NCBI GenBank assembly: GCA_014905635.1
Contig: CM026547.1
Span: forward strand, 1,736,001 to 1,800,000
Origin: Scenedesmus sp. PABB004
Lineage: Eukaryota
Reading direction: 5' to 3'
DNA: 64,000 nucleotides
The translations under genes and the position numbers were made by a program. Positions within the stretch are counted from its first letter, which is position 1. Every line of letters begins with the position of its first letter. Of this stretch, positions 20,257 to 24,661 are shown one piece after another. Under the pieces are notes generated by a model. That model saw nothing but the letters and a program-made list of their open reading frames with translations. It was not told the DNA's origin and ran no database searches.

Positions 20257-22270
20257 TCACCCGAGCGAGCAGCCCGGGCAGCCGGCGACGCCCGGCAGGC
20301 ACACAATGCTGTGCCGGATGGGCCGGTTCTCGCTGGTGAGCAGGCCCGGGTGCTTCTGCTTGGCCTGCTTGCAGGCATTGCACCAGCGGTGCCCGTCCGC
20401 CACGTGCCAGCTGGTCGGCTGGCGGGGGGCGTAAAGATAAAAGATAAAGATAGTTACACCACAGGCGTAGTGGTCGCGGCCGCAGAAGTAGCAGTGCGCC
20501 CAGACCCCCTCCTCGTCGTCGTCCTCGTCGATGCGCGTCCACGCCGCGGCGTCGGCGTCGGCCGCGCGCGTGGCGGCGCCGACAAGGGGCGGCGGGCGGC
20601 CCCCGCCGATGCGGCTGCCGACCCAGCTGTCGTAGCCGCCACCCTGCGCCGCCTTGAAGGAGTGGAACCAGGAGTACACGCGGTCAGAGCTCTTCAGCAT
20701 CCTCGGCACCTTGACGCCGCCGGTCGGGTGCTGGCCCGCGGGCGCGACGATGTCGGCCGTGATGGTGACGCCCAGCTTGAAGGGGTCCGTCGCGCGGCGG
20801 GCGTGGAAGATGTGGCCGCCGTCGCGCCAGAAGCCGCCGGAGCCCGCGCCGAGCTTGTCAAAGGCAATGATGTCGTCCTTCAGCACCAGCAGCTGCGCGG
20901 GGGCAGGCGCGGGAGAGGGGCGGGGGCGGACGCGTCAGCGCCACTGCCGACAGGAGGCGAGGCGAGGCGCCTCGCCCGCGCGCCAGCCGCCCCGCCGCGC
21001 GCCGGGCTCCTCACCGGCGCGTCGGCCATCTTGTACTTGCCGTTGACCTCGAGGACGTGCTTGAAGACAAACCAGCGCTCTCCCTGTCGGGACGGGGCGG
21101 CGCCGCGGCGGCTGCTGCTGGCCAGGCCCTGCAAGGCGCCGCGGCGCGCCGCGGGCCCGCGTCGCGCGGCGCGGCGCGCCTGCGGGTTGACGTCGATGAT
21201 CGTGCGCAGGCTGCCCGCCATGCCTTTGAAGTCCTCGCGCGCGAACCAGACCTCGCTGACGCGCACGTCCTGGTGCTCGCAGTCGAGGCGGCCGGCGATG
21301 GTGAAGTTCTTGTAGCGCTCCTTCTCGCGCTCGTTGCCCTGGCGCAGCACCAGCTCGAACGCGGCCACGCGCCAGCCTGCGCCGGCGCAGCGGGCGTGGC
21401 AGGTTGCTCAGCAGTCGCCGCCGCCGCCGCAGCGGCGTGGCCGCTGCCGCCGCCGCACCCGCGTCGGTGAAGGGCTTGAGCGCCTTGTCGCGCGACATGT
21501 TCAGGATGGACGTGCCGCTGGCCGTCTTCAGCAGCTGCGGGAGGCTCACGTGCATGTGGCCCTTGGTCTGCAGCCCCTCCTGCGGTGCGGCGGCGGCAGC
21601 AGCAGCCGTCGGCGGCAGCAAACACGCAGCCGCCCAGCCCCGGGCGACGCGCAGCCCGGCCCCCGCGCGCGCTGCGTTGCCGCACCTTGAGCGACGGGTC
21701 GGCCGCGAGCAGCTCCTGCGCCCAGCCGTAGCACTCCGCTTTGTCGCCCGCGCTCAGCGCGCTCTTGTGCCCGTAGACGCGCGCCGTCGGGCCGTCGGGC
21801 TCGTCCTGTGTGCGCGGCGGCCGAGGCTGAGGCGGCAGCCGAGGCGGCGGCGGCAGGCAACGCGGCGACATCTTCCAGATGTCCATCACATAATCTGCCA
21901 CAGAGTGAACAGCAAGCTGATCCTGCAGCAGATCACCAAGCAGATAACGCCGAGCCTGCTCCAGTGCTGGCGGTGCGGCTGGCCGAGGTTGTTGTCGAGG
22001 CTCGCGCCCAGGTTGGTCGCCAGCTGCGCCAGTTTGCCCTCCTGGCGCGCGCGCGCCTCTGCCTTGGGCGCCTGCTGCGTGAAGGGTGCGGGCTCAAACT
22101 TGTTGGGCGCGACGCGCGCGCGCTTGGCGGCCTGGCGGCCGCGCGCGGGGGGCGAGCGCGCGGCGGCGGCGGACGTGCGCACGTGAGGGAGAGGGAGGGC
22201 GAGGGGCTGCAGCACTCCCTCTGCGCCGCACCTGGTCGTGGTCGTGCGGAGGCGTGTCGTCCTCGCCCGC
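20257..22270 (-). pseudogene. Left copy of unknown zinc-finger protein gene; 5'-truncated
   Basis: Homology to the right copy stops at 22270, about 30 codons after the ATG. A ~100-bp unrelated segment (~21868-21969) replaces the end of exon 2 and its donor site. A 36-bp in-frame insertion lies at 20434-20469. Confidence 0.7.
20434..20463 (-). mobile_element. 30-bp micro-insertion TGTGGTGTAACT(ATCTTT)n with 6-bp TSD GGCGTA
   Basis: GGCGTA at 20428-20433 and 20464-20469. Absent from the equivalent site in the other arm. Confidence 0.8.
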
Positions 22271-22612
22271 TCGCACCCGCTCACATCCGCCGCCGCCGCC
22301 GCCGCCGCCGCTGCGGCGGCCTCTCTCGCCCGCTCGAACCCGCTCGCGTCTGCCCGGCGCGCGTGCGCGCGCCTCGCGCCGCGTGCGTGCGGGGCGCGGG
22401 GCGAGGGGCGGCGCGGGCGCGCCGCGCTTTGGCGGCGCCGCGTCGCGCCGCGCTTTGCCAGCGCCTCTCCATTGAGTCTCCGCGCGCTTCTGGAGCCCGT
22501 CTGGGCGCGCCCTCGCGCCCGGTCGCGCCCGATCTCGCACGCGCCCCGCGGCGCGCGCGCTCGCTCTTGGCGGCGCGCCCCCGCGCTCCGACGCGCCCCC
22601 AGCGCGCCCACC

Positions 22613-24661
22613 ATGCAGTCCCGCACCCCCGCGCGCCCCGGCGGCGGCAGCGGCGCCGGCTCCTCGCGCGTGGCAGCGGCGGCGCCGGCAGCGCCGGCGC
22701 CCGCCGCGGGCGAGGACGACACGCCTCCGCGCGACCACGACCAGGTGCGGCGCAGAGGGAGTGCTGCAGCCCCTCGCCCTCCCTCTCCCTCACGTGCGCA
22801 CGTCCGCCGCCGCCGCGCGCTCGCCCCCCGCGCGCGGCCGCCAGGCCGCCAAGCGCGCGCGCGTCGCGCCCAACAAGTTCGAGCCCGCACCCTTCACGCA
22901 GCAGGCGCCCAAGGCAGAGGCGCGCGCGCGCCAGGAGGGCAAACTGGCGCAGCTGGCGACCAACCTGGGCGCGAGCCTCGACAACAACCTCGGCCAGCCG
23001 CACCGCCTGCCCGCGCTCGCGGTGCGCGCGCCTGGCAGGCTCCGCTCCCACTGCCGCCGCCGCGTTGCCTGCCGCCGCCGCCTCGGCTGCCGCCTCAGCC
23101 TCGGCCGCCGCGCACACAGGACGAGCCCGACGGCCCGACGGCGCGCGTCTACGGGCACAAGAGCGCGCTGAGCGCGGGCGACAAAGCGGAGTGCTACGGC
23201 TGGGCGCAGGAGCTGCTCGCGGCCGACCCGTCGCTCAAGGTGCGGCAACGCAGCGCGCGCGGGGGCCGGGCTGCGCGTCGCCCGGGCTGGGCGGCTGCGT
23301 GTTTGCTGCCGCCGACGGCTGCTGCTGCCGCCGCCGCACCGCAGGAGGGGCTGCAGACCAAGGGCCACATGCACGTGAGCCTCCCGCAGCTGCTGAAGAC
23401 GGCCAGCGGCACGTCCATCCTGAACATGTCGCGCGACAAGGCGCTCAAGCCCTTCACCGACGCGGGTGCGGCGGCGGCAGCGGCCACGCCGCTGCGGCGG
23501 CGGCGGCGACTGCTGAGCAACCTGCCACGCCCGCTGCGCCGGCGCAGGCTGGCGCGTGGCCGCGTTCGAGCTGGTGCTGCGCCAGGGCAACGAGCGCGAG
23601 AAGGAGCGCTACAAGAACTTCACCATCGCCGGCCGCCTCAACTGCGAGCACCAGGACGTGCGCGTCAGCGAGGTCTGGTTCGCGCGCGAGGACTTCAAAG
23701 GCATGGCGGGCAGCCTGCGCACGATCATCGACGTCAACCCGCAGGCGCGCCGCGCCGCGCGACGCGGGCCCGCGGCGCGCCGCGGCGCCTTGCAGGGCCT
23801 GGCCAGCAGCAGCCGCCGCGGCGCCGCCCCGTCCCGACAGGGAGAGCGCTGGTTTGTCTTCAAGCACGTCCTCGAGGTCAACGGCAAGTACAAGATGGCC
23901 GACGCGCCGGTGAGGAGCCCGGCGCGCGGCGGGGCGGCTGGCGCGCGGGCGAGGCGCCTCGCCTCGCCTCCTGTCGGCAGTGGCGCTGACGCGTCCGCCC
24001 CCGCCCCTCTCCCGCGCCTGCCCCCCGCGCAGCTGCTGGTGCTGAAGGACGACATCATTGCCTTTGACAAGCTCGGCGCGGGCTCCGGCGGCTTCTGGCG
24101 CGACGGCGGCCACATCTTCCACGCCCGCCGCGCGACGGACCCCTTCAAGCTGGGCGTCACCATCACGGCCGACATCGTCGCGCCCGCGGGCCAGCACCCG
24201 ACCGGCGGCGTCAAGGTGCCGAGGATGCTGAAGAGCTCTGACCGCGTGTACTCCTGGTTCCACTCCTTCAAGGCGGCGCAGGGTGGCGGCTACGACAGCT
24301 GGGTCAGCAGCCGCATCGGCGGGGGCCGCCCGCCGCCCCTTGTCGGCGCCGCCACGCGCGCGGCCGACGCCGACGCCGCGGCGTGGAAGCGCATCGACGA
24401 GGACGACGACGAGGAGGGGGTCTGGGCGCACTGCTACTTCTGCGGCCGCGACGACTACGCCCCCCGCCAGCCGACCAGCTGGCACGTGGCGGACGGGCAC
24501 CGCTGGTGCAATGCCTGCAAGCAGGCCAAGAAGAACCAAAGACAAAGACAGTTACACCACAGAACCACCCGGGCCTGCTCACCAGCGAGAACCGGCCCAT
24601 CCGGCACAGCATTGTGTGCCTGCCGGGCGTCGCCGGCTGCCCGGGCTGCTCGCTCGGGTGA
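22613..24661 (+). CDS. Unknown multi-exon protein with C-terminal CxxC..CxxC zinc-finger-like motifs; frameshifted near the C-terminus by a 29-bp insertion
   Basis: [10 protein letters not shown]..|[17 protein letters not shown]..|[14 protein letters not shown]..|[15 protein letters not shown]..|[12 protein letters not shown]..|[18 protein letters not shown]..|[37 protein letters not shown]. Seven exons with clean splice sites. Confidence 0.7.
24539..24561 (-). mobile_element. 23-bp micro-insertion TGTGGTGTAACT(GTCTTT)n with 6-bp TSD GAACCA
   Basis: GAACCA at 24533-24538 and 24562-24567. Absent from the equivalent site in the other arm. Same 12-bp end as the 20434 insertion. Confidence 0.8.

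Follow-up and report, generated by a model that had tools for sequence, protein, structure and literature searches.

Two micro-insertions in an inverted gene duplication of Scenedesmus sp. PABB004 as probable extreme 3' stubs of a resident LINE

Two insertions of 30 and 23 bp, each flanked by perfect 6-bp target duplications, interrupt the two arms of an inverted gene duplication in the green alga Scenedesmus sp. PABB004, within a 64,000-nucleotide stretch of contig CM026547.1 (positions 1,736,001 to 1,800,000; assembly GCA_014905635.1), hereafter the window. We conclude that both are very probably extreme 5'-truncated copies of a long interspersed nuclear element (LINE) resident in this genome, made by target-primed reverse transcription (TPRT), and that a third, 101-bp LINE-derived piece in the left arm is a patch resembling endonuclease-independent insertions. 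On this reading, an apparent "new micro-transposon" resolves into the ordinary 3' stub of a resident LINE.

Two short insertions distinguish nearly identical gene copies

The arms are head-to-head copies of one seven-exon gene and together make up an inverted duplication of ~2 kb. The left arm (20257 to 22270, minus strand) carries the gene for hypothetical protein HT031_000316 (P0003), and the right arm (22706 to 24661, plus strand) that for HT031_000317; a protein search identified the two as adjacent hypothetical proteins of Scenedesmus sp. PABB004, and the seven exons of the right copy were read off the sequence. Inverted-repeat blocks of 745, 440, 305, and 229 nt with 99-100% identity delimit the arms at approximately these coordinates. 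Their alignment contains 15 mismatches over 1,916 columns, eight of which are a mis-alignment over the LINE replacement described below. The true differences are seven substitutions and two 1-bp indels, and the arms are thus ~99.6% identical.

The left insertion (30 bp, 20434 to 20463) lies between perfect copies of GGCGTA at 20428 to 20433 and 20464 to 20469. The right insertion (23 bp, 24539 to 24561) lies between perfect copies of GAACCA at 24533 to 24538 and 24562 to 24567; this duplication can alternatively be read as 7 bp (AGAACCA), because the last base of the insert is an A. A first-pass annotation, made from the sequence alone, had described two insertions with perfect 6-bp duplications, and the coordinates above bear this out. 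It had also derived an empty site for each insertion from the opposite arm. The left empty site is there, as a single TACGCC at 24456 to 24461 on the plus strand of the right arm. The right empty site, at 20351 to 20356 in the left arm, reads GAAGCA on the minus strand (TGCTTC) rather than the proposed GAACCA, and both duplicate copies at the right insertion show this 1-nt difference. The two insertion sites lie on opposite arms, 83 bp apart in gene coordinates, which agrees with the earlier figure of less than 100 bp. The inserts were also correctly described as AT-rich in very GC-rich DNA: their GC content is 27% and 43%, compared to 79.6% for the window.

Two of the seven arm substitutions (20472/24453 and 20353/24565) fall within 10 bp of the micro-insertion sites (our binomial estimate, ~0.01). 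They may be insertion-associated mutations or pre-existing differences.

The shared 12-mer matches the 3' end of a LINE

Read on the minus strand, both inserts consist of the same 12-mer, TGTGGTGTAACT, and a run of (RTCTTT)n units that stands directly beside the duplication. On the left, the 12-mer occupies 20452 to 20463 and the run 20434 to 20451 (18 bp; ATCTTT ATCTTTT ATCTT); on the right, they occupy 24550 to 24561 and 24539 to 24549 (11 bp; GTCTTT GTCTT), respectively. A motif scan found just these two copies of the 12-mer in the 64 kb, each on the minus strand; ~0.01 matches would be expected by chance, and none of 100 shuffles reached at least two.

The source of the 12-mer is a LINE whose 1,763-aa protein (KAF8069361.1; P0001) is annotated in Scenedesmus sp. 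PABB004 under the depositor's name "LINE-1 reverse transcriptase-like". The first-pass annotation had recognized no described family. P0001 and a second LINE protein, P0002, are 97% identical in their matched stretch, and five LINE open reading frames (ORFs) on five contigs mark a multi-copy element. Both proteins contain the Pfam reverse transcriptase (RT) family RVT_1 (E values of 3.7e-24 and 2.8e-19) and an N-terminal Tudor-like domain. For the Pfam endonuclease family Exo_endo_phos the cutoff is 24.5 bits, and P0002 scores 32.1 bits and P0001 24.1 bits. The best solved relatives of the LINE RT are human L1 ORF2p (E about 2e-15) and then R2 (E 2e-13), and the domain order fits an apurinic/apyrimidinic (AP)-type endonuclease N-terminal to the RT, with relatedness judged here from solved structures and domain order.

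Four of the five LINE proteins end in ...DIWKM RDTVLKGRGTNG(R/H)EP(V/A)V, i.e., ...GTNG(R/H)EP(V/A)V, and the minus strand of 20454 to 20465 translates as PVV-stop. Judged from these C-termini and the translation, the 12-mer corresponds to the last 10 bases of the LINE ORF, including its TAA stop codon, followed by CT. The hexamer repeats start straight after the 12-mer, so the LINE would have almost no 3' untranslated region (UTR), with just 2 bases from its stop codon to the tail. The (RTCTTT)n run hence represents the LINE tail, of an A-type on the left and a G-type on the right. TGTAA serves as a poly(A) signal in chlorophytes, and the first-pass annotation had noted it in both inserts; the motif is indeed present, but it overlaps the LINE stop codon. 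The LINE match lends support to its suggestion that a target duplication with a variable simple-repeat tail reflects TPRT by a non-LTR (long terminal repeat) retroelement. An (RTCTTT)n tail departs from the poly(A) tail expected of mammalian and flowering-plant L1 elements, which is not disqualifying for a green-algal L1, since 8 of the 15 green-algal L1 families tabulated in PMC3472496 have repeats other than poly(A) as a tail. A keyword search of the open-access literature, covering the strain and algal LINE tails, turned up no account of the family to which this LINE belongs.

Organelle-DNA insertion, a transposon excision footprint, a solo LTR (TG...CA), and an adapter artefact had also been considered as origins of the inserts; they were dropped after the LINE match.

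A third LINE piece replaces 50 bp of the left gene copy

A further difference between the arms, absent from the first-pass annotation, is also LINE-derived. On the minus strand of the left arm, 21869 to 21969 is an internal piece of the LINE ORF (101 bp, 52% GC), recognized by its translation against P0001, by arm comparison, and by metagenome contigs. The translation of 21869 to 21967 is identical to P0001 residues 1714-1746 at 33 of 33 positions. The piece stops short of the last 17 codons, the stop codon, and the tail. No target duplication flanks it, and 50 bp of target are lost. The presumed original state is preserved at 23008 to 23057 on the plus strand of the right arm, where the 50 bp comprise the end of exon 2 and the start of intron 2. 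A single filler base (21868; T on the minus strand) separates the LINE piece from the resumed arm. When the window was searched with the LINE proteins under low-complexity filtering, both of the two resulting high-scoring segment pairs covered 21869 to 21967, whereas an unfiltered tblastn lacking composition correction was swamped by hundreds of false matches to low-complexity sequence.

PMC1920257 characterizes endonuclease-independent L1 insertions by four features: they are 3'-truncated, they lack a target duplication, they lack a tail, and their cleavage site is atypical. Target deletions occur at 18 of the 21 such loci reported there. The 101-bp piece shows the first three of these four features together with a target deletion. 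It further resembles the class described by Sen et al. (2007; PMC1920257) in deriving from the 3' half of the element and in its 1-nt filler; it differs from the loci reported there in organism and in LINE, and the two micro-copies fall outside that class. The 101-bp piece looks like an endonuclease-independent patch of a break. A single chimeric event spanning 20434 to 21969 was rejected, because the 30-bp insert is tightly enclosed by its perfect duplication and both pieces have arm homology on either side.

Metagenome contigs match the LINE piece and, in one case, its terminus

We compared the region with contigs of three freshwater metagenome runs (X1, X2, and X3; small shares of 0.10, 0.07, and 0.06), which were the only sequencing runs listed for this sequence, none of them of RNA. 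Several contigs match the 101-bp piece at 21869 to 21969. In X2, word depth is 95-297 for contigs with the LINE piece versus 2.9 for a contig of unique arm sequence, although such depth does not equal copy number. One X2 contig continues past 21869 into a sequence that translates, by hand, to RDTVLKGRGT, the P0001 residues directly after 1746. In X3, a 1,161-bp contig matches 21869 to 21969 and, in addition, 27 letters ending at window position 20466 (joint 20466->21869), which on the minus strand read GCC, the 12-mer, and two tail units. P0001 predicts 41 bases between the 101-bp piece and these 27 letters; the number of letters between the two matched parts of the contig was not reported, and the arrangement is consistent with a normal LINE 3' end.

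Among the contigs of the three runs, none spans either micro-insertion. A 151-bp X1 contig matching 24372 to 24522 with one other letter spans the uninterrupted right-arm site and is assignable neither to an arm nor to an empty allele. Unique arm sequence (21263 to 21810 and 24372 to 24522) is matched by metagenome contigs with 0-3 differences over 151-279 bp. As judged from these sequence matches, the PABB004 alga or a very close relative is present in the three freshwater samples at low depth. A scan of the metagenomes for TGTGGTGTAACTRTCTTT returned 22 stretches, all in contigs of 31-58% GC and with no second tail unit, which we judged to be chance matches. A 30-mer of the LINE piece had no match in the viral or prokaryote genome collections, and a protein-guided locus search of the same collections with P0007 gave 68 and 5 pattern matches, respectively, none of which was confirmed.

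Junction sequences are consistent with target-primed reverse transcription

On the 3' side of the plus strand, the target ends in ...TA on the left and ...CA on the right, and the first copied bases are AAGAT... and AAGAC..., respectively. Both nick sites thus follow YA. The last two target bases, which are the 3' TA and CA of the first duplication copies, are complementary to UA in the A-type tail (left) and to UG in the G-type tail (right). At the opposite junctions, the LINE reads ...GAGCC upstream of the 12-mer, as deduced from the X3 match and from the codons for E and P. The left target TACGCC shares GCC with the LINE (3 nt; minus-strand GCC, the first three bases of the second GGCGTA copy); for the right target, TGGTTC, the shared base is C (1 nt; position 1 of the second GAACCA copy). 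Owing to this microhomology, the LINE-derived part comprises 12-15 bases in the left insert and 12-13 in the right one. The first-pass annotation had stated that both inserts begin at the same base; they may do so, but this is not demonstrable, as 3 nt and 1 nt fit both target and LINE. TPRT is recognized by a perfect target duplication and an intact tail, combined with 5' truncation and with microhomology at the junction.

We suggest the following sequence of steps, the order of which we infer from the junctions. The LINE endonuclease would nick the plus strand after ...TA (left) or ...CA (right), and the two end bases would anneal to UA or UG within the hexamer repeats that form the tail of the LINE RNA. 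The RT would then copy the tail and only the final 12-15 (left) or 12-13 (right) bases of the element, including the stop codon. Synthesis of the second strand could be primed from the 6-nt staggered overhang via the 3-nt or 1-nt microhomology, and fill-in of the overhang would create the 6-bp duplications. The TPRT model and the role of microhomology in it are described in PMC1920257.

The micro-insertions share with 5'-truncated L1-type TPRT insertions an intact 3' end with a variable tail, a target duplication, a truncated 5' side with microhomology at its junction, pairing of primer and tail at the 3' junction, and a source that encodes an RT and an AP-type endonuclease. Unlike usual L1-type copies, they retain only 12-15 element bases, carry a hexamer tail, come from a source with practically no 3' UTR, and have two near-same endpoints. 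Their duplications measure 6 bp, whereas PMC1920257 gives 7-20 bp for human L1. Tails made of repeats other than poly(A) are the norm among the green-algal L1, RandI, and RTEX families covered by Ohshima (2012; PMC3472496), and the RandI tail listed there is likewise a hexamer, (CTATTT)n. Unlike those listed families, the LINE studied here has an N-terminal Tudor-like domain, and its (A/G)TCTTT unit is absent from the table in PMC3472496. The stubs are extreme cases within a familiar type of truncated-LINE insertion; they are no new mobile element.

Endpoint recurrence, clustering, and alternative explanations

Several observations weigh against an origin of the micro-insertions by TPRT from the resident LINE. 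First, the endonuclease match of P0001 falls 0.4 bits under the Pfam cutoff. Second, the 3' end of the LINE's own DNA is represented by one 27-letter match (at least 90% identity) in one metagenome contig, together with the protein C-termini, and no full-length LINE copy with a tail was seen. Third, the A-type and G-type tails differ, so two source subfamilies must be assumed; the proteins P0001 and P0002 do already differ in sequence. Fourth, the read evidence comes from metagenomes and none of it from the sequenced strain. Fifth, two of two micro-copies end within ~3 bases of each other, which is unexpected for random truncation of an ORF of ~5.3 kb. Sixth, all three LINE-derived pieces are confined to 4.4 kb, and the remaining 59.6 kb of the window has none, a distribution for which simple independent insertion is insufficient.

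The fifth point would be accounted for most simply by where the endpoint lies. At the AT-rich terminus of the LINE, where it abuts the GC-rich ORF, GC-rich target overhangs could for the first time pair with the cDNA, or the enzyme could pause; we infer that this boundary produced the near-same endpoints. An RNA G-quadruplex upstream of the 12-mer was considered as the stop and rejected: the Arg codon must be CGY (P0005 has His), which leaves no fourth G-run.

With regard to the sixth point, our rough estimates are p ~0.01-0.02 for three events in some 4.4-kb span and p ~0.003 for a further insertion landing no more than 83 bp from the homologous site. The clustering points to a local cause, possibly a fragile palindrome; that the three events were independent is our presumption. 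A bolder proposal, which we would put forward only tentatively and regard as rather unlikely, is that the LINE regularly makes micro-retrocopies of 12-15 bases, through arrest of the RT or of second-strand priming at the AT-to-GC boundary, and that the palindrome is a preferred LINE substrate, e.g., as hairpin-prone or stalled-fork DNA. If true, this would explain why 4.4 kb hold three patches, of which two sit at homologous positions of opposite arms with 83 bp between them, and thousands of stubs that escape repeat masking could form a hidden source of small AT-rich indels in an 80% GC genome. Endpoint recurrence and palindrome clustering could show whether retrotransposition that aborts early is a steady source of mutation in very GC-rich algal genomes.

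We weighed four other explanations. The micro-insertions might be a separate unit of 12 bases plus tail with a fixed 5' end that is mobilized by the LINE, either a "micro-SINE" (short interspersed nuclear element) or a specific cleavage product of the LINE RNA 3' end, which is close to the defined ultra-short mobile unit of the first-pass annotation. Both copies do start at nearly, and possibly exactly, the same base, their tail types differ, and stringent-type LINEs are described in PMC3472496 as recognizing their own 3' ends. However, the 12-mer is continuous with the end of the LINE ORF and runs on into LINE sequence in the metagenome contig; the 3-nt and 1-nt microhomologies blur its start, such that the endpoints may differ; and a unit with only two copies in 64 kb has, in 12 bases, no room for a promoter. 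We consider such a unit improbable, and the earlier proposal is not supported.

Capture of 3' fragments of LINE cDNA or RNA during repair of breaks in a fragile palindrome, with the 6-bp repeats arising by fill-in of staggered breaks, seems to us likewise a poor prospect. Such capture would accommodate three observations: the locus does hold a repair-type patch, the 101-bp piece, which lacks a duplication and comes with a 50-bp deletion and a 1-nt filler; every one of the three LINE pieces in the window falls within the inverted repeat; and two of the seven arm substitutions are close to the micro-insertion sites. The micro-copies, however, retain their tails intact, are flanked by perfect duplications of one length, and show a 2-nt complementarity between primer and tail, features that the repair-type insertions characterized in PMC1920257 lack.

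The short size of the inserts led the first-pass annotation to suggest remnants left by excision, and a longer LINE or other element might have been reduced by excision or internal deletion. The finding that the 12-mer is a LINE ORF end plus 2 bases goes against this, as does the inability of LINEs to excise; two later deletions would each have needed to stop precisely at the edge of the duplication, and the ~99.6% arm identity leaves little time for them. We therefore regard remnants as very unlikely. Finally, an assembly or polishing artefact is scarcely credible: palindromes are hard to assemble and the read evidence comes from metagenomes, but an artefact would not yield perfect 6-bp duplications around the precise 3' terminus of a resident LINE on two occasions and with tails that differ.

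Consequences for the deposited gene models

The stubs and the LINE patch both affect how the two gene copies were annotated. The deposited left model (HT031_000316, beginning MDIWKM...) takes its start ATG at 21886, inside the LINE piece, and translates the stub as ACGVTIFIFYLY, which adds 12 extra residues. The left copy has no homologue of exon 1 or of the exon 2/intron 2 boundary, and it may be a pseudogene or a LINE-host chimera. The right model (HT031_000317) removes 24420 to 24562 as a 143-nt intron, whose acceptor AG is formed by the last base of the stub and the first base of the duplication and whose removal takes out the CxxC...CxxC part of the last exon. Without this intron, the 29 added bases would shift the frame of the last ~33 codons. 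Hence, in the gene model as deposited, the 143-nt intron appears to hide a frameshift caused by the stub. LINE activity can thus leave insertions that are too short for repeat annotation yet alter genes. The genome of Scenedesmus sp. PABB004 is reported in PMC12571836 to comprise 39.8 Mb with 78.5% GC and 1.31% repeats.

The host gene itself has no Pfam family among the six exon translations scanned, and a protein search found no match to the host protein at near length. Rfam gave no matches in 20300 to 24700 at E values up to 1.

Additional sequence features of the window

At its outer ends (20157 to 20256 and 24665 to 24764), the inverted repeat enters a GGTGCGGTG-like minisatellite, where arm identity is 79-90%. 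Elsewhere, a 47-bp AT-rich block at 49747 to 49793 (CA and A runs) stands in ~80% GC sequence, with a 10-11-bp direct repeat, GCGCGGCGGCG, at 49735 and 49799. The stretch from 49735 to 49809 could be another short retro-insertion with a target duplication, or a chance repeat in low-complexity GC sequence. A 20-bp motif of lower GC content occurs with identical flanks at 3614 to 3633 and 5510 to 5529, 1.9 kb apart, which suggests a tandem duplication there.

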